A stretch of DNA of 64,000 nt from a virus (IMGVR_UViG_3300009593_000014:21155-85154); one strand, 5' to 3'. Counted from the first letter of the stretch, positions 42,364 to 49,790 are shown. Numbers and translations: made by a program. Notes: generated by a model not told the origin, from the letters alone.

Positions 42364-42518
42364 GGCTGTGTTTCGTGGCTCGCTCGCTCTCTCCCTTTAA
42401 CGTCAGGGGAATTTAGGCATATAGATACGGTGTTTTTAATAGGTATTTATTAAATGCTTGACAAGACTATAACTATTAAATTAATCTGTAATTTATAAGC
42501 AACAGATGAGGAGACATC

Positions 42519-42683
42519 ATGGCTAAATATAAAGAAACCAAATGGGATATAAAGCCTAGTTACGACTATGAGGGTAAATGGGAAGTGTTCCATATTGGAC
42601 ATAGTAACTACGTTCGTAGCGTACACGACACACACGCTGAAGCATTAGCAGAAGCGCGGAGACTAGACAGGGAGAATAGATAA
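42519..42683 (+). CDS. Cassette cargo: 54-aa protein (not in ORF track)
   Basis: MAKYKETKWDIK...HDTHAEALAEARRLDRENR; SD GAGGAG; TTGACA upstream at ~42458. Confidence 0.7.
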   Translation: MAKYKETKWDIKPSYDYEGKWEVFHIGHSNYVRSVHDTHAEALAEARRLDRENR

Positions 42684-42790
42684 TGTTAGATCCGATTTAT
42701 AGACGGCGTAGGATCGCTGTCAGCGCTTTATTGGCAGTGTTCGTATTCTGGTTCTCATATCTAGGCGGGGAACTGCTTAGTAGCCTTTAA
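42683..42790 (+). CDS. 35-aa YRRRR-TM membrane peptide (not in ORF track)
   Basis: TAATG coupling; MLDPIYRRRRIAVSALLAVFVFWFSYLGGELLSSL. Confidence 0.65.
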   Translation: MLDPIYRRRRIAVSALLAVFVFWFSYLGGELLSSL

Positions 42791-42989
42791 CCAGCAGGCT
42801 GTGTTTCGTGGCCCGCTCACTCTCTCCCTTTAACGTCAGAGAAACTATATACAAGGACATTATAGCTTTAATACATAATCCCCAACCGCTCGCTGTTGTT
42901 CGTTGGCTCGCTAAACCGCAAGATTGTGCATGCATGCGCAAAGGCTTTTAATAAACATTGGTGAATAGATAGAACTTAAAAATAATGAC

Positions 42990-43019
42990 TTGACTTGATC
43001 TAATCAGTTATGCCATAAT
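42990..43019 (+). promoter_or_regulatory. Sigma70-type promoter with extended -10
   Basis: TTGACT-N18-CATAAT with TG extension. Confidence 0.65.
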
Positions 43020-43040
43020 TTCTTTATGGCGATATCACCA

Positions 43041-43104
43041 CTACCAAACAGCAACGCCCCGCTCATCGTTGCAGCTCCGGTAGCAATTAGTAGAGCAGGA
43101 AGGA
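43041..43104 (+). ncRNA. Candidate 5' leader pseudoknot RNA (type-A copy 1; others at 45854-45916 and 48721-48790)
   Basis: Covarying P1, P2 and loop-to-3' pairing across three copies. Confidence 0.6.
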
Positions 43105-43115
43105 AACGTGATCTT

Positions 43116-43442
43116 ATGGCAACGGATTGGGGTCAAGCAATTGACCTATCCGAGATTGCAAAGTCTCGTCGTGGCGCAACAGCGACCTACGAGCAGGGAC
43201 TACTTGACGCACTTACTGAGGCATTCAGTAACGGTCAAGCACTTGCAGTGTCACCATTGGCAGTTCTTCAAGAGTCTTTTAAGACTGACGAAGAATACGC
43301 CAATGCGAAACAAGCCAACGCTGCAGAGATCAGGAAGCACTTCAACCGCTTGGTTGAATTGGGACTGATCGCTGACGGTTCAAAGGTGTCCATAAATTGG
43401 CACCCAGAGACCGGCGTTCCACAAGTTTCGCTTAAAGGGTGA
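43116..43442 (+). CDS. WHPE-family paralogue A1
   Basis: WGQAIDLSEIAKSRRGAT..INWHPETGVPQVSL; SD AGGAAGG; in-frame upstream ATG at 43026. Confidence 0.85.
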   Translation: MATDWGQAIDLSEIAKSRRGATATYEQGLLDALTEAFSNGQALAVSPLAVLQESFKTDEEYANAKQANAAEIRKHFNRLVELGLIADGSKVSINWHPETGVPQVSLKG

Positions 43443-43454
43443 TTCTCGGTCCAT

Positions 43455-43510
43455 CTGACTCTTAAACGAGGAACCGGAGTGACTAGCAAGCACTTGGCAA
43501 CAGAACAAAC
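43455..43510 (+). ncRNA. Candidate 3' RNA motif of type-A cassettes (others ~46263-46318 and 49156-49212)
   Basis: A 35-nt block is identical in copies 1 and 2; the stem shows compensatory changes in copy 3. Confidence 0.55.
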
Positions 43511-43516
43511 TACTAA

Positions 43517-43550
43517 AGAAGACCGGCTCGGGGGAGCCGGTCTTCTTCTT
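43517..43550 (+). terminator. Intrinsic terminator
   Basis: AGAAGACCGGCTC-GGG-GAGCCGGTCTTCT. Confidence 0.8.
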
Positions 43551-43787
43551 TGTGTGGGTGCATATCAGGAGCTGCAGCTGCAACGAGTTCTGCTGTTGTT
43601 CGTTTGCTCGCTAAACCGCCAGATTGTGCATGCATGCATGGCAATATTTAATACGAATAGTTATGCAGCTAGAACTTAAATAAGGATTATCTACTGTCGT
43701 AAAATTCAAATGTTGTTGTTTGTGTTAATAGTTGGATACGATCAGTTTTGTCATATTAAAAACATTTAACTTTGGAGGTTAAAAATT

Positions 43788-44297
43788 ATGAACGTTTACG
43801 GATCAGGAGGAGGGCTAGTAAATCTAAACGGTTTACATGATGGCGCAATGCCTCTTATGTGGAAATTAGCCTGTATACATATCGGGCTAGATATTGCACC
43901 CCTATTTAGAGGGTTCGCTATTGCTAAGACCCTTAATGATGTTTATTACGTCTACACCATGAATAGCGATAATGGTGTTAATTGGTGTATTGACTCATTT
44001 GTCGTCTATGACGAATATGGCGAGGGAATGCTGAACTGCCTTATGCACGTTCAGGCTGATGTAGCAGACCTACAAGAAGTAATAGATGGTGGCGGCAAAC
44101 GAGCGATATGGCTCGCTGACTACAATCCAGATAGCGGTGTTGACATTGGTTATGTAGATGAGAGGGAAGTAGAGGAAGCAGATATTTCTGTAGAAGATTA
44201 TGCCCGCTTCTATATCGGTCTTACCCAAGCGATCATTCAGCATGGCAATAGAGAAGATGGCGCTATCAGTTTTGATTGGACTAAGACAATTCCATAA
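43788..44297 (+). CDS. Cassette cargo: unrelated 169-aa hypothetical protein
   Basis: SD GGAGG; terminator at 44309-44348. Confidence 0.78.
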   Translation: MNVYGSGGGLVNLNGLHDGAMPLMWKLACIHIGLDIAPLFRGFAIAKTLNDVYYVYTMNSDNGVNWCIDSFVVYDEYGEGMLNCLMHVQADVADLQEVIDGGGKRAIWLADYNPDSGVDIGYVDEREVEEADISVEDYARFYIGLTQAIIQHGNREDGAISFDWTKTIP

Positions 44298-44599
44298 GGC
44301 ACCTAACAAAGACCCTCATGTTGCAGCTGCAGCGTGAGGGTCTTTTTTGCTTTATGGGGTCTTGTCTTGAGTGTTCGAGGAGCCACTATTCCGACCAGCA
44401 GGTGGAAAATAGGGCTGTTGTTCGTTTGCTCGCTAAACCGCAAAATTGTGCATGCGTGCATGGCAATATTTAATGCGAATAGTTATTCAGCTGGAACTTA
44501 AATAAGGATTACCAGGTTCGAGAAAGTTGGATGTTGTTGTTTATATTAAAAATATGTATCCTCGGATATGTCATATTCAACTAAGAGAAAGGTTATGAC

Positions 44600-44929
44600 A
44601 TGGCAACATTAGACAACTGGGGAGAAGCAATAGATCTCTCCGAAATTAAGAAAGCGAAACGGGGTGCGACTGTTCATTTAGAACAGGGGCTTCTTGACTT
44701 CCTTTCTAAAACTTTAAGTGCTGGTCAAGCAGTAGCACTTACTGGTTTCACTATTGACCCTAAAAAATTCCCTGATGAGAAAGACGCAGGCAATGAACGC
44801 CAGCGCATTGGGGCAGTTATTCGTCGGCATGTTAATCATCTTCGTGATGAAGGATTAATCCCTGATGAGAAAGTGTCTATTAATTGGCACCCAGAAGCGG
44901 ACTATCCGCAGATTAGTTTCAAGTCTTAA
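44600..44929 (+). CDS. WHPE-family paralogue B1
   Basis: RIGAVIRRHV..INWHPEADYPQISF; terminator at 44945-44976. Confidence 0.88.
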   Translation: MATLDNWGEAIDLSEIKKAKRGATVHLEQGLLDFLSKTLSAGQAVALTGFTIDPKKFPDEKDAGNERQRIGAVIRRHVNHLRDEGLIPDEKVSINWHPEADYPQISFKS

Positions 44930-45207
44930 CTAATCCACTCGCTTAAGGCCCTCATGCTCCGGCATGAGGGCCTTTTGCGTTTATGGGGTAAGTCCCAGGA
45001 CTAGAACGCTGTTGTTCGTTGGCTCGCTGACCGCCCAATTGTGCATACATGCGCGATGGTTTTTAATACGAATAGTTATGTAGTTAGTACTGAATTAGGA
45101 ACTATCGATAACCGAGAAAGTTAAATCGTTGTGTTTAGTTTAAAAGTTTGGTTACAATCTCAAGAGTAAACATAACCGCCACCAGATGTGGCAGAAAGAG
45201 AAAAACA

Positions 45208-45537
45208 ATGGCAACAATGGATAACTGGGGTGAAGCAATAGACATCTCAGAAATTAAGAAAGCGAAAAGGGGTGCAACCGTTCAGCTTGAGCAGGGGCTC
45301 CTCGATTTTTTGCAAACCACGCTTGGCGCTGGTCAAGCAGTGGCGCTCACTGGATTTCAGATAGACCCTAAAAAGTTTTCTGACGAAAAAGATGCTGGCA
45401 ATGAACGCCAACGTATCGGTGCAGTGATCCGTAGGCACGTTAATTATCTTCGTGATGAGCAACTAATAGCCAACGAAAAAGTGTCAATCAATTGGCACCC
45501 TGAAGAAGACTATCCTCAGATTAGTTTTAAATCTTAA
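45208..45537 (+). CDS. WHPE-family paralogue B2
   Basis: MATMDNWGEAID; promoter TTGTGT-N18-TACAAT; terminator at 45554-45585. Confidence 0.88.
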   Translation: MATMDNWGEAIDISEIKKAKRGATVQLEQGLLDFLQTTLGAGQAVALTGFQIDPKKFSDEKDAGNERQRIGAVIRRHVNYLRDEQLIANEKVSINWHPEEDYPQISFKS

Positions 45538-45928
45538 ATAGTCTCTTTCACTTAAAGCCCTCATGCTCCGGCATGAGGGCTTTTTGCTTTTTCCAACCAG
45601 CAGGTGGAAAAGTTGGGCTGGTAAAAGTTGGGGTTCTCATGGATTAAAGTTTGGAACTTTGCTAGTCCCAGGACTAGAAGCCTGTCGTTCGTTGGCTCGC
45701 TGACCGCAAAATTTAGTATGAACTTATGGCAATTTTTAATAGGAATAGTTCTGTAGCTAGTCCTGAACTAGGAACTATCGAGAACTTAAGAAAATAAAAT
45801 ATGTTTGAAAATATAAATTATGACGATAGGAATAAGGCATGGAGATATCACCACTCAATAGAACTAGCGCCACGCCCATCGCTGACGCTATTGGGCAACC
45901 ACTAGGGCAGGAAGGATACTTGATTGCA

Positions 45929-46258
45929 TTGGCAACTTCATGGGGGTCATCTATTGACCTTAGTGAGATCGTTAAAGCCTCTCGTGGCGCTACGGCGACA
46001 TATGAGGAAGGCTTGCTTGATGCTCTTGCTGAAACACTCGGTAAGGGTCAAGCATTAGCGTGCACACCTATGGCGGTACTTGCTTCTGACTACGCAGAAG
46101 AAGACGATTACCGCAATGCTAAGCAAACTAATGCGGCAGAATTGCGTAAGCACTTTAACCGCTTGGTGGAACTCAAAAAAGTTCCTGCTGGTTCTAAGAT
46201 TTCTATAAATTGGAATCCCGAAACCGGCGTGCCTCAAGTTTCGCTTAACAACAAATAG
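45929..46258 (+). CDS. WHPE-family paralogue A2 (WNPE variant)
   Basis: TTG start aligned to A1; in-frame ATG at 45839; terminator at 46322-46350. Confidence 0.82.
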   Translation: MATSWGSSIDLSEIVKASRGATATYEEGLLDALAETLGKGQALACTPMAVLASDYAEEDDYRNAKQTNAAELRKHFNRLVELKKVPAGSKISINWNPETGVPQVSLNNK

Positions 46259-46664
46259 GCAACTCACAATATGAGCAAGACTCGGAGTGACTAGCAAGCA
46301 CTTGGCAACAGAACAAAACTCAAGCCCCTCGCAGACGCGAGGGGCTTCTTACTTTCTATGGGTTAATAGCCTCGCCTCGAGAACTGTATCGCTGTTCCTG
46401 GATCTAGGGCTGTCGTTCGTTGGCTCGCTTCCTTATAACTTTTAACGGTAGGAAAAATTGTTGTTCTCCCTGGTATGAATTAAGTGGATATTTCAAAACG
46501 ATAGTTAATCGTCCTGGTCTAAGACAAAACACTAACTGATTAAGCAGCAGGAGCTGAATTAGGAACTATTGACTACCGAAAAAATTAAATGTTGTTGTTT
46601 ATCTTAAAAGCCTGTATCTTCATATATTCAATAAACAACTATTAAACCTTAAGGAGGTTTTGTT

Positions 46665-46985
46665 ATTGACAATCAATGGGGCGAGGCCATAGACCCCTCG
46701 GAAATAAAGAAAGCAAAGAGAGGTGCGACTGTTCAACTAGAGCAGGGGCTACTTGACTTTTTGCAGGAAATACTCAACAACGGACAAGCGGCACAAGTCA
46801 CGGCTTACAAGATTGATCATAAAAAGTTCAAGACTGAAGATGCTGTAGCCAATGAGAAACAAAGAATCGGTGCAGTAATTCGCCGTCACGTTTCTCATCT
46901 CCGTGATGAGAAATTAATCGCCAATGCTAAAGTTTCGACTAATTGGCATCCTGAAGAAGATTATCCGCAGGTTTCATTCTCGTAG
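46665..46985 (+). CDS. WHPE-family paralogue B3 with ATT start
   Basis: The frame extends upstream of ORF 46761 as IDNQWGEAIDPSEIKKAKRG; AAGGAGG lies 7 nt before the ATT; in-frame stop at 46650. Confidence 0.78.
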   Translation: MDNQWGEAIDPSEIKKAKRGATVQLEQGLLDFLQEILNNGQAAQVTAYKIDHKKFKTEDAVANEKQRIGAVIRRHVSHLRDEKLIANAKVSTNWHPEEDYPQVSFS

Positions 46986-47068
46986 ATAATCTTCTCCCTT
47001 AAAGCCCCCTCATAGGTTCCTGTCAGCACTAGATCCTTTCTGAGGGGGCTTTTTGGCGTTTATGGGGG

Positions 47069-47120
47069 AAGTTGGGGATCTCGTCTGTTTTTGGAAGTTG
47101 GGGATCTCGTCTGTTTTTGG
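47069..47120 (+). repeat. Perfect 26-bp tandem duplication
   Basis: aagttggggatctcgtctgtttttgg x2, just before header copy 12. Confidence 0.9.
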
Positions 47121-47325
47121 ATCTTGGGCTGTCGTTCGTTGGCTCGCTGACCACAAAATTGTGCATGCATGCATGACAATGTTTAATATGAATATTTCTG
47201 TAGCTAGTACTGAATTATGAACTATCGACTACCGAGAAACTTAATTAGTTGCATTTAGTTTAAAAGTTTGATTACAATGTCAAGAGTAAACACAACCGCC
47301 ACTATGTGGCAGAAGGATAAAGACA

Positions 47326-47655
47326 ATGGCAACAATGGATAACTGGGGAGAGGCAATAGACATCTCCGAAGTTAAAAAGGCAAAAAGGGGTGCGACTGTT
47401 CAACTAGAGCAGGGGCTACTTGACTTTTTGCAAACCACGCTTGGCAATGGTCAAGCAGTAGCACTTACTGGATTTCAGATAGACCCTAAGAAGTTTTCTG
47501 ATGAAAAAGATGCAGGCAACGAACGTCAGCGCATCGGTGCAGTAATTCGCAGGCACGTCAATCATCTTCGTGATGAGCAACTGATTGCTAACGAGAAGGT
47601 ATCCATCAACTGGCACCCAGAAGAGGATTACCCACAGATCAGCTTTAAATCTTAA
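47326..47655 (+). CDS. WHPE-family paralogue B4
   Basis: Protein near-identical to B2; promoter TTGCAT-N18-TACAAT; terminator at 47671-47702. Confidence 0.88.
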   Translation: MATMDNWGEAIDISEVKKAKRGATVQLEQGLLDFLQTTLGNGQAVALTGFQIDPKKFSDEKDAGNERQRIGAVIRRHVNHLRDEQLIANEKVSINWHPEEDYPQISFKS

Positions 47656-47972
47656 CTGGTCCCCTCGCTTAAGACCCTCACGCTACGGCGTGGGGGTTTT
47701 TTGCGTTTATGGGGTAAGTTTTGGAAAGCTGGTGGAATACCAGTCCCTCGAACACTATAAGCCTTGTCCCAGGACTAGAACGCTGTCGTTCGTTGGCTCG
47801 CTTCCCGCGAAAATTGTGTGCACATATGCACACATTGAGTACATATTTATAGTTAAAAATATATCTATTCCTGGTACTAGAAGTTTGGTAGTTGCGTTTG
47901 GCTTTGAACTATGTTTATAATTTAAAGAGTAAACACAACCGCCACCTTTGTGGCAGAAAGTAGAGTAAAAAC

Positions 47973-48302
47973 ATGAGTACCAATTGGGGGAGCGTTATAG
48001 ACGTTTCCGAAGTTCAGAAGGCAAGCAGGGGGGCGACTGTTCAACTAGATCAAAGCCTCCTTGACTTCCTTTGTGAAGCCTTAAGCGCCGGGCAAGCAGC
48101 CGCGCTTACTGCCTACCGAGTAGATCCTAAAATATTCTCTAGCGAGAAGGATATGGCAAACGAGAAACAACGGATAGGCGCGGTAATCCGTAGGCATGTC
48201 AACAACCTTCGTCATGATGGTTTGATAGCCGAAGGCAAAGTATCAATTCATTGGCACCCAGAAGGCGGATACCCGCAAGTACAACTGCTTAGTTATTCCT
48301 AA
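47973..48302 (+). CDS. WHPE-family paralogue B5
   Basis: IHWHPEGGYPQV; promoter TTGCGT-N18-TATAAT; terminator at 48320-48350. Confidence 0.88.
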   Translation: MSTNWGSVIDVSEVQKASRGATVQLDQSLLDFLCEALSAGQAAALTAYRVDPKIFSSEKDMANEKQRIGAVIRRHVNNLRHDGLIAEGKVSIHWHPEGGYPQVQLLSYS

Positions 48303-48801
48303 GCAGATCCCTTCACTCGAAGCCCTCACGCTACGGCGTGGGGGCTTCTTGGCGTTTATGGGTAAGTTTTCGGAAGCTGGTGGAAGACAAACGCTGTCGT
48401 TCGTGGCTCGCTTCCTTATAACTTTTTGCGGTAGGAAAATTTGTTATAGCTATTGCCTGACTTTAATGCATGCCCCGGAAAGTGTTTTGAAAGAATAATG
48501 CTCCCCCTGGTGGTTAAAACTTTTTAGATGGTGTATTAGTCCACCGAAGTTCAATTTTGTTTCAATGGTGGCTTCTCAGAACCGACTTTTTTGCATTAAA
48601 TGTCTTAATTGAAAGTATTTCAAATAAATAGACCTTCCTCGAATATTAAAGAATTTGAAAAAAAGTGTGTTAATTCTTGATTATGAAGGTAACTTATTTC
48701 ATATGGATATAACTTATTCACTTAGCAATCCGAGAAGCCCTATGATGACCGGCGCTCAAATAGCTATGCAACCAAATAGGTCTGTGGAGCATAATTCTTT
48801 T

Positions 48802-49143
48802 ATGGGAAATCCTATATCTGATGAGTGGGGCGAAATAATTGACCTCGGTGCCATTGCGAAATCTCGCAGGGGTGCCGTTGCTAGTTATGAGCAAGGCTTG
48901 CTAGATGCTTTGACCAAGGCTTTTAAAGCCGGTCAAGCTTTGAGTGTTACTCCGTTCACGGTTCTTGAGTCTGACTATAAGTCAGAAGAAGAATTTAAGA
49001 ACGCTAAGCAATCCTATGCAGCCGAAATCCGCAAACACTTCCGCCACCTAGTGGTTACTGAAGTAGTTGCGGAAGGTTCCAAGGTTGCCATTAATTGGCA
49101 CCCTGAAACCGGCGTGCCTCAAGTTTCGCTTAGAAGCTCTTAG
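48802..49143 (+). CDS. WHPE-family paralogue A3
   Basis: EWGEIIDLGAIAKSRRG..INWHPETGVPQVSL; in-frame upstream ATG at 48703; terminator at 49234-49262. Confidence 0.82.
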   Translation: MGNPISDEWGEIIDLGAIAKSRRGAVASYEQGLLDALTKAFKAGQALSVTPFTVLESDYKSEEEFKNAKQSYAAEIRKHFRHLVVTEVVAEGSKVAINWHPETGVPQVSLRSS

Positions 49144-49474
49144 ACTCATCAAAAACTGAACCCCTTGAGGGTGAACGGAGTCGCCACTAGCGACTTGGCA
49201 CCAGAACCAAACTAGTAAAGCGTAATATCCACCAAGCCCCTCGCAGATGCGAGGGGCTTCTTACTTTATAAATGTCTCAGCTGCAATTTTTATGTGGCAC
49301 CTCTCAAGGCTCAAGGGCTGTCGTTCGTGGCTCGCCCAATGACGGTGTTGAATACTAATGAAAATTAATATAACTATAGATTATATTGAGTAGACATATC
49401 CCTAGCGTAGCTTCGCTATCGTGCCGGAGTCACGATAGCAAAAATCTTTAATATATATTTATTATATAGAGTGC

Positions 49475-49790
49475 ATATTTTTCCCCACACACACCTTTTA
49501 TATGTTTTATACATAATTGGCCGGGTATTCCGAAGGAACCTGAAAGGCAAACTTGTGCCCGCAAAATATTATTAATCCTTAAGCATTATATTGTGTATAT
49601 ATTTTTCCCCACAAATAGCTTTTAGTTTGGCGGGTATTCCGAAGGAACCCGAAGGGCAAACTTGTACCCGCAAAATATTATTAATACTTAACCATTATAT
49701 TGTATGTATATTTTTCCCCACGAATTACTATTAATCTTTGCGGGTATTCGACGAAGGAGAAGGCGCAGCCCTTGTACCCGAAAAATTATT
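49475..49790. repeat. Three ~110-bp tandem units with branched GNA-triloop hairpins
   Basis: TTTTCCCCAC...CGGGTA-TTCCGAAGGAA-CCYGAARGG-...-TRCCCG; structured cores at 49522, 49631 and 49741. Confidence 0.85.

Follow-up and report, generated by a model that had tools for sequence, protein, structure and literature searches.

The stretch of DNA analyzed here (the window, 64,000 nucleotides (nt) long) corresponds to bases 21155-85154 of an 85-kb virus record from IMG/VR. It carries genes of tailed phages, including those for an HK97-type capsid protein, a portal protein, a prohead protease and a ribonucleotide reductase, and it is contained in marine metagenome runs. The region from 43.0 to 49.2 kb contains eight paralogues of a protein of ~109 amino acids (aa) with the C-terminus ...INWHPETGVPQVSL. 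Three of them, the type-A paralogues A1, A2 and A3, are preceded by the leader that is the subject of this study. A first-pass annotation of this DNA had described the leader as a pseudoknotted, riboswitch-like RNA adjoining the Shine-Dalgarno sequence (SD).

Relatives of the encoded protein were collected in several ways. A search of 5.8 billion proteins yielded 58 relatives with called lengths of either 133-139 or 109-112 aa, and a metagenome scan yielded 49 loci. With the core of the protein as a tblastn query, 121 copies were recovered, many of them in tandem arrays, and in 114 of these the start lay no more than 8 residues from the start of the core. When the upstream sequence was included, 79 copies were unique; the 74 copies with at least 110 nt upstream were grouped by leader similarity into 39 clusters. 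No relative was matched in the phage and plasmid collections. In viral_contigs, none of the 38 stretches returned by a peptide-pattern scan was confirmed as a relative, and two DNA-motif scans returned at least 119 stretches each, with the family encoded at none of the 238 loci fetched; the latter stretches were chance 14-mer matches.

In the leader, a helix P1 encloses a second helix P2, and the apical loop of P2, which is C-rich, forms a pseudoknot with the 4-6 bases that immediately precede the SD (Table 1). The 3' strand of this pseudoknot is reached through an A/C-rich linker of 8-14 nt and stops, in every lineage, one base before AGGAAGGA, GGAG or GAAGGA. All of the pairings that had been proposed for P1, P2 and the pseudoknot were found in the sequence, in A3 with a mismatch in P1 and an interrupted P2. 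The CA before P1 and the CAA after P1 were likewise present in the three window copies; the CAA is not kept in a fourth type-A variant (L009:1889-1981, with CCG at this site), the helices of which are P1 CTTAAT/ATTAAG, P2 TTAACG/CGTTAA and pseudoknot GTCC/GGAC. Type A therefore offers four mutually complementary pseudoknot 4-mers: GCTC/GAGC, GCCC/GGGC, GTCC/GGAC and GACC/GGTC. Since the pseudoknot helix ends before AGGAAGGA, the SD core is single-stranded in the proposed fold, and control of access to the SD, as originally suggested, is not supported in the form of pairing of the SD itself.

Table 1. Positions (in the window) of the type-A leaders, their helices, the genes behind them and the associated transcription signals. 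P1, P2, helices; SD, Shine-Dalgarno sequence.
Feature	Position	Strand	Details
Type-A leader 1 (A1), 90 nt	43026..43115	+	from distal ATG 43026; A/C-rich linker 43084-92; SD AGGAAGGA 43097-43104; then ATG 43116
A1 helices	P1 43041-45 / 43079-83; P2 43051-56 / 43067-72; pseudoknot 43061-64 / 43093-96	+	P1 CTACC / GGTAG; P2 GCAACG / CGTTGC; pseudoknot GCTC / GAGC; read directly
Type-A leader 2 (A2), 90 nt	45839..45928	+	from distal ATG 45839; linker 45896-45904; SD AGGAAGGA 45909-16; then TTG 45929
A2 helices	P1 45854-61 / 45888-95; P2 45865-69 / 45880-84; pseudoknot 45874-77 / 45905-08	+	P1 CTCAATAG / CTATTGGG (one G-U); P2 (T)AGCG / CGCT(G); pseudoknot GCCC / GGGC; read directly
Type-A leader 3 (A3), 99 nt	48703..48801	+	from distal ATG 48703; linker 48769-78; SD GGAG 48786-89; then ATG 48802
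A3 helices	P1 48721-26 / 48763-68; P2 48732-39 / 48751-57; pseudoknot 48747-50 / 48779-82	+	P1 CTTAGC / GCTATG; P2 GAG-AA-GCC / GGC-G-CTC; pseudoknot GACC / GGTC; read directly
Core gene A1	43116..43442	+	proximal ATG, 108 aa, ...INWHPETGVPQVSLKG; long form from 43026, 138 aa
Core gene A2	45929..46258	+	proximal TTG; long form from 45839, 139 aa
Core gene A3	48802..49143	+	proximal ATG
Promoter-like site of A1	42990..43019	+	TTGACT-18-CATAAT, TG before second hexamer; best match in 42400-49400, 10/12
Terminator-like hairpin behind A1	43516..43547	+	equivalents behind A2 (46322-46347) and A3 (49234-49259)

The pairings are not lost in homologous leaders. The same architecture, with unrelated sequences, recurs upstream of homologous genes in other lineages of marine metagenome contigs, and compensatory changes in three separate alignments and in the 133-aa family bear out the covariation of P1, P2 and the SD-adjoining pseudoknot. 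In the type-A alignment (5 distinct rows), 77.5% of the cells were paired, against 65.2% in shuffled alignments (0 of 500 as high) and 26-42% with slid partners, and both sides had changed at 7 of 16 pairs; in these figures P1 of A1 and P2 and the pseudoknot of A3 are scored as unpaired, being one column out of register. Clusters 13 and 23 taken together (4 rows) had 96.7% of the cells paired, against 84.4% after shuffling (0 of 500 as high), with 6 of 15 pairs compensated, two in each helix. The corresponding values for cluster 14 (5 distinct rows) were 97.5% and 90.8% (1 of 500 as high), and three of its P2 pairs were compensated, P2 being GATGGT/ACCATC, GCCCG/CGGGC or GAGGGT/ACCCTC. Cluster 21 has P1 TGGCC/GGCTA, P2 TCAAG/CTTGA and pseudoknot CTCACC/GGTGAG. 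The 133-aa family was counted by a script anchored on AAGG, because the columns of its MAFFT alignment misplace the pseudoknot partners, by one column in some rows; all 13 copies form 5-6 of 7 pairs in P2 and 4-5 of 5 pairs in the pseudoknot, which occurs in three sequences (CTCGC/GCGGG, CTCTC/GAGGG and ATCAT/ATGAG).

In cluster 14 (L018:1160-1254 and relatives), the 3' strand of P1, CGTGG, can pair either with the upstream CCACG, forming P1, or with a second, downstream CCACG, which is the one used in the minimum-energy fold. These alternatives may represent mutually exclusive folds.

Statistics gathered across the clusters point in the same direction. The architecture score of 19 of the 74 copies was at a level met by no more than 5 of 100 dinucleotide shuffles, where 3.7 copies would be expected; the fraction of shuffles reaching the score was 0.01 for A1, 0.01 for A2 and 0.00 for L009:1979, and A3 was missed by the strict search, which allowed no bulges (0.57). 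In a partner-swap control over the 39 clusters, the loop and the pre-SD stretch of one and the same leader paired better than swapped partners (Wilcoxon p 0.006 and 0.011). The SD-to-start spacer is longer in the pseudoknot-bearing lineages (9.5 vs. 6.5 nt, p 1e-4), and their SDs are moderate (-5.6 to -7.5 kcal/mol). The weight of the evidence lies in the covariation rather than in single-copy scores, and on these sequence comparisons we consider the pseudoknot very probably real.

At the paired cells, G-U outnumbered A-C by 14 to 7 (8 to 2 in the two well-aligned sets), as expected for a sense-strand RNA. This bears on the possibility that the fold belongs to the DNA, as a recombination site or folded single-strand site of the cassette array comparable to integron attC. 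A match on the minus strand to the Rfam attI/aminoglycoside leader, at chance level (19.1 bits, E 2.4), would be in keeping with such an element. It is the G-U excess, together with the loop-to-tail pseudoknot and its fixed register to a sense-strand SD, that fits an mRNA instead, and the fold is also present in metagenome contigs in which neighbouring copies lie on opposite strands. We regard a DNA-level element as the least credible of the explanations considered here.

The absence of a known family, which the first-pass annotation had anticipated, is consistent with the Rfam search. The covariance models of Rfam 15 gave no match in the whole window at the gathering score; with E up to 10, the region 42500-49500 gave 13 matches (best E 0.49), of which none fell on a leader's sense strand or belonged to a riboswitch family. 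A covariance model could be built from the type-A copies and searched as had been proposed, and it found type-A copies alone in 187,893 bases of related loci. Its matches comprised eight true ones and two due to chance (E 1.4 and 4.6); A1 scored 96.7 bits, A2 94.8 bits and A3 56.6 bits, and over the whole 85-kb record the three copies were found.

These results also bear on ligand sensing, one of the two functions first put forward for the leader. In the SAM-II, preQ1-II, fluoride and guanidine-III riboswitches, an H-type pseudoknot lies beside the SD, and this likeness, together with an A/C-rich linker typical of pseudoknot loops, speaks for a small-molecule riboswitch in which a ligand would form or melt the pseudoknot and so gate the SD. 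Against it stand the lack of a match in Rfam, the position of the SD core outside any helix and a downstream gene that no library identifies as metabolic or transport-related. Loops, stems and junctions differ wholly between lineages, so that no unpaired bases are common to them, the type-A model is limited to type A, and the leaders are no more stable than their shuffles. A ligand riboswitch is therefore very unlikely.

The second property of the leader is its reading frame. The proximal ATG or TTG has an SD-like run 3-16 nt upstream in 74 of 75 copies (at -4.0 kcal/mol or better in 70), and in many copies in-frame stops occur within 15 codons upstream of it; those copies have no other start, and the proximal site is therefore the conserved start of the family. 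Nevertheless, the stretch between a distal ATG and the proximal start is free of stops in the frame of the gene in all 30 copies of ten clusters, among them three type-A clusters, whereas the other two frames contain stops in 14 and 22 of the 30 copies. Counted by cluster, frame 0 is stop-free in 10 of 10 and the other frames in 3 and 1 of 10. Among the 73 copies with 150 nt upstream, the mean open run is 29.8 codons in frame 0, against 14.4 and 11.8 codons in the other frames. The distal ATG, located in 28 of the 30 copies (26 by script; A2 and its twin L009:2716 by coordinates), stands at a distance fixed for each lineage: 30 or 33 codons upstream in type A (30 codons ahead of the TTG in A2), 22 in the 133-aa family, and 25-26 in clusters 13 and 23. 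It has an SD of its own in 17 of the 26 copies scored, which belong to the 133-aa family and to clusters 13 and 23, and none in type A and cluster 14. Indels of plus or minus 1 are compensated across copies, and in the 133-aa family the 66 nt between the two ATGs are kept while the spacer from AAGGA to ATG is 10 or 11. The term leader, in the plain sense in which it had been used, thus understates the stretch, which is an ATG-started open frame in phase with the gene in all three window copies as well as in the 30 copies of the ten lineages, and may therefore be translated as an N-terminal extension.

Two other translational devices were considered and rejected. An upstream open reading frame (ORF), the stop of which would be the conserved TAG ahead of the pseudoknot strand, was dismissed by eye, since no start codon opens the frame. 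A stimulator of programmed -1 frameshifting does not fit, as the three leaders contain no slippery X XXY YYZ heptamer and the starts are in the same frame.

The open frame, with its conserved distal ATG, would also be expected if the gene simply started at that ATG and the pairings were a by-product or due to chance. The proteins of 133-139 aa given by gene callers, in which the leader is annotated as coding, and the ordinary folding energies agree with such a plain N-terminal extension. However, the pattern of evolution of the stretch is not that of a protein. Among 12 ungapped sequences, the differences fall on the three codon positions at 32/34/33% in the extension, against 23/15/62% in the core, and the ratio of synonymous to non-synonymous changes is 131:248 in the extension against 1837:355 in the core; clusters 13, 14 and 23 likewise lack codon periodicity in the extension. 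Between A1 and A2, the identity of the leaders is 0.71 at the nucleotide and 0.30 at the amino-acid level, while that of the cores is 0.70 and 0.65; amino-acid identity thus collapses with nucleotide identity unchanged. The same two leaders, both of 90 nt, have 39 of 88 aligned nt in shifted frames, including the common block GCAGGAAGGA. In cluster 21, the fold is kept despite in-frame stops in 5 of 7 copies and therefore does not depend on being read. Given also the compensatory changes in three helices in the three independent alignments and the SD-led proximal start, we consider it improbable that the gene has a plain extension and nothing else.

A promoter-like site precedes A1 and would put the transcript start at ~43026, the A of the distal ATG, which would make this a 5'-terminal AUG. 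As a class, promoter-like sites are not enriched in 42400-49400 (7 found vs. 11.7 expected), and the A1 site is therefore weak evidence. Terminator-like sites are more frequent than expected (22 vs. 6.4), and since one lies behind each of the eight paralogues, each cassette appears to be transcribed as a separate unit.

A 12-bp palindrome, GGnGATATCnCC, lies directly 3' of the type-A distal ATG at 43028-43039 and 45841-45852 (also at L009:341-352 and 1891-1902). At the nucleotide level it is the best-conserved stretch of the leader, and it is degenerate in A3. It may act at the DNA level, as an operator over the predicted transcript start, and not in the RNA.

The fold is close to where a short monocistronic transcript with a terminator of its own is predicted to begin, and it is conserved in structure rather than in sequence; both would suit a role in mRNA stability or processing, in which the fold shields the transcript from nucleases that depend on the 5' end, or marks a cleavage site, with no effect on initiation. 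Yet a protective hairpin needs no pseudoknot strand fixed one base before the SD, as is found in every lineage, and in type A ~15 unpaired nt lie ahead of P1. We therefore find this explanation unlikely.

We favor the reading that the leader is a structured translation-initiation region in a dual-start mRNA, for which we judge the chances to be somewhat better than even. The folded domain would be a cis-acting part of the initiation region of the proximal start, where it would set the efficiency with which 30S subunits use a moderate SD with an unusually long SD-to-start spacer, either alone or together with a protein. The same mRNA would carry the distal AUG, which in type A is SD-less and possibly the 5' end of the transcript, and which in other lineages has its own SD. 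As the folded stretch is free of stops in the frame of the gene, ribosomes starting at the distal AUG would read through it, unwind the fold and produce a long isoform, the additional 22-33 residues of which would be under no sequence constraint. In this way the fold would determine how initiation is divided between the distal and the proximal start. The sequences themselves show the covariation of the fold, its place next to the SD, the open frame and the absence of codon periodicity; that both starts are used is our inference, and the fold may be either a gate or an enhancer and may be bound by a protein.

A more specific proposal, which we consider less likely than not, is that of a translated riboregulator: the pseudoknot would be a gate between two in-frame starts that sets the ratio of the long and short isoforms of a multi-copy phage protein. 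The stretch would then be kept readable, with no stops and with frameshifts compensated, for the melting of the gate by ribosomes coming from the distal AUG, which may be leaderless, and not for the sake of the peptide. Such a device would have been assembled afresh, from new sequences, in seven or more marine phage lineages.

Several points weigh against the dual-start reading and the fold on which it relies. A3 is a weaker fit, with 5 of 6 pairs in P1 (a T-T mismatch) and a 2 x 1 internal loop in P2. Thermodynamic support was not obtained: in none of 10 leaders did the stability exceed that of the shuffles (z +0.09 to +0.86), and the nested minimum-energy fold of A1 and A2 differs from P1/P2. 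Any single copy lies only in the 1-6% tail, and among 101 other ORF starts in the window, 6 reach the score of A1 and 1 reaches that of A2. The partner-swap control shows a modest effect, as every loop is rich in C and every pre-SD stretch rich in G. The alignments comprise few rows (4-13), which are related to one another, and the structures, having been drawn from the same sequences, are favored over the slid controls. As for the starts, the use of either one is our inference, the distal ATG of type A has no SD, and the promoter geometry is convincing for A1 only, A2 having it with weak hexamers and A3 not at all. The in-frame stops of cluster 21 count here as well, and there is no RNA run among the sequencing runs containing the stretch.

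The contigs of 4 runs were compared with the stretch, and nothing beyond one natural variant of A1 was found. In this variant (runs X5 and X12; L009:429), A43116 is changed to T, so that the proximal ATG becomes TTG, and codon 2 of the distal frame is also changed. All three helices are unaltered; the nearest change, A43073G, lies just 3' of P2.

The question of what protein might act on the leader leads to the product of the gene itself. The family obtained nothing usable from Pfam, PHROGs, NCBIfam, a PDB sequence profile or Atlas, and the clusters containing its relatives are all named "hypothetical protein." The protein library search gave no match to a single-stranded DNA-binding (SSB) protein or OB-fold; the family protein has weak, sub-threshold matches to HTH_62 (E 0.005 and 0.01; 17 bits against a cut-off of 27). 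The latter matches are in keeping with autogenous control, the other function first proposed, in which the ~109-aa product or another phage protein would bind the pseudoknot beside the SD and repress translation, by analogy with S15/rpsO and T4 gp32/gene 32. Each paralogue has its own version of the fold, and a pseudoknot within the initiation region that leaves the SD free would correspond to the rpsO operator as described (PMC8470358); gene 32, too, is controlled through a 5' pseudoknot (PMC10690425). The family, for its part, cannot be assigned to any nucleic-acid-binding family, and the lineages have no unpaired bases in common for one protein to recognize. We consider an autogenous operator rather unlikely.

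In the type-B (short) paralogues, a local hairpin, GCCAC-N3-5-GTGGC, ends one base before the SD (45176-45194, 47296-47312 and 47939-47956). In the alignment, this hairpin has its 3' strand where A2 has that of the pseudoknot; an SD-abutting helix is therefore common to both types, and only the partner differs. Several distant members (L051:213, L053:2819, L046:3976, L049:245, L052:844, L055:760 and L048:894) keep CCACTAG before the SD and have a small hairpin with the SD in its loop (e.g., GGCC-CAAGGA-GGCC), strong GGAGG-type SDs and spacers of 5-6 nt. A GCTGGCTCGCT-like motif occurs before A1 (42903-42915) and, in many copies, 100-150 nt upstream of family members in distant contigs (L046-L057). 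Within the array, an unrelated 169-aa ORF with no family match (43788-44297) lies between A1 and the first type-B copy. One paralogue (46677-46985) has the SD AAGGAGG and no in-frame ATG, GTG or TTG nearby, the aligned codon being ATT; it has either a rare start codon or is a decaying copy.

The leader adds a class of structured RNA from uncultured marine phages that is not in Rfam. It is also a natural example in which RNA structure and a reading frame are constrained together with no constraint on the amino acids, and may be useful for testing methods that distinguish selection on coding from selection on structure. The start codons of the gene family are inconsistently annotated, and the element would probably escape surveys of intergenic regions, as gene callers treat the stretch as coding. 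Our literature search, limited to the library and terms used, found no paper describing this arrangement. One catalogue lists 8,495 candidate structured RNAs from IMG/VR (PMC10690425) and could hold the motif; it was mined between predicted genes, and the leader is in most cases called as coding.

Comparison with known systems places the leader between several of them. As in the SAM-II, preQ1-II, fluoride and guanidine-III riboswitches, a compact pseudoknot adjoins the ribosome-binding site; unlike in these and in the ZTP riboswitch, the SD is not in a helix, and no core or pocket nucleotides are conserved across lineages. The pseudoknot of T4 gene 32, situated far upstream, is a nucleation point for cooperative binding to an unstructured A/U-rich stretch, on which the ribosome-binding site lies, whereas the one described here abuts the SD with no such stretch, and its gene product is not a recognizable single-stranded DNA-binding protein. 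Dual-start genes are known from phages, lambda S being an example. Like the gene 32 operator, the leader belongs to a phage mRNA in which a pseudoknot precedes the start; in T4, this pseudoknot takes part in autogenous translational control (PMC10690425; PMC535899).

The rpsO operator for ribosomal protein S15 contains a pseudoknot between a hairpin loop and a downstream sequence in the initiation region, leaves the SD free and acts on initiation (PMC8470358). The leader likewise has a pseudoknot within the translation-initiation region, here supported by covariation; the differences are that it ends 5' of the SD and does not reach the coding start, that a phage protein with no assigned family lies downstream, and that an in-phase frame is open from the distal AUG. 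In turn, E. coli mRNAs with a 5'-terminal AUG and a downstream SD-led start can use both (PMC4965119). The leader shares with them two putative initiation sites on one mRNA with RNA structure between, the distal one possibly leaderless and the downstream one SD-led. It differs in that its two starts share a frame and are separated by 22-33 codons, and that the intervening stretch, which lacks codon periodicity, contains a covarying pseudoknot; if both starts are used, the leader would constitute a compact, portable module for setting isoform ratios.

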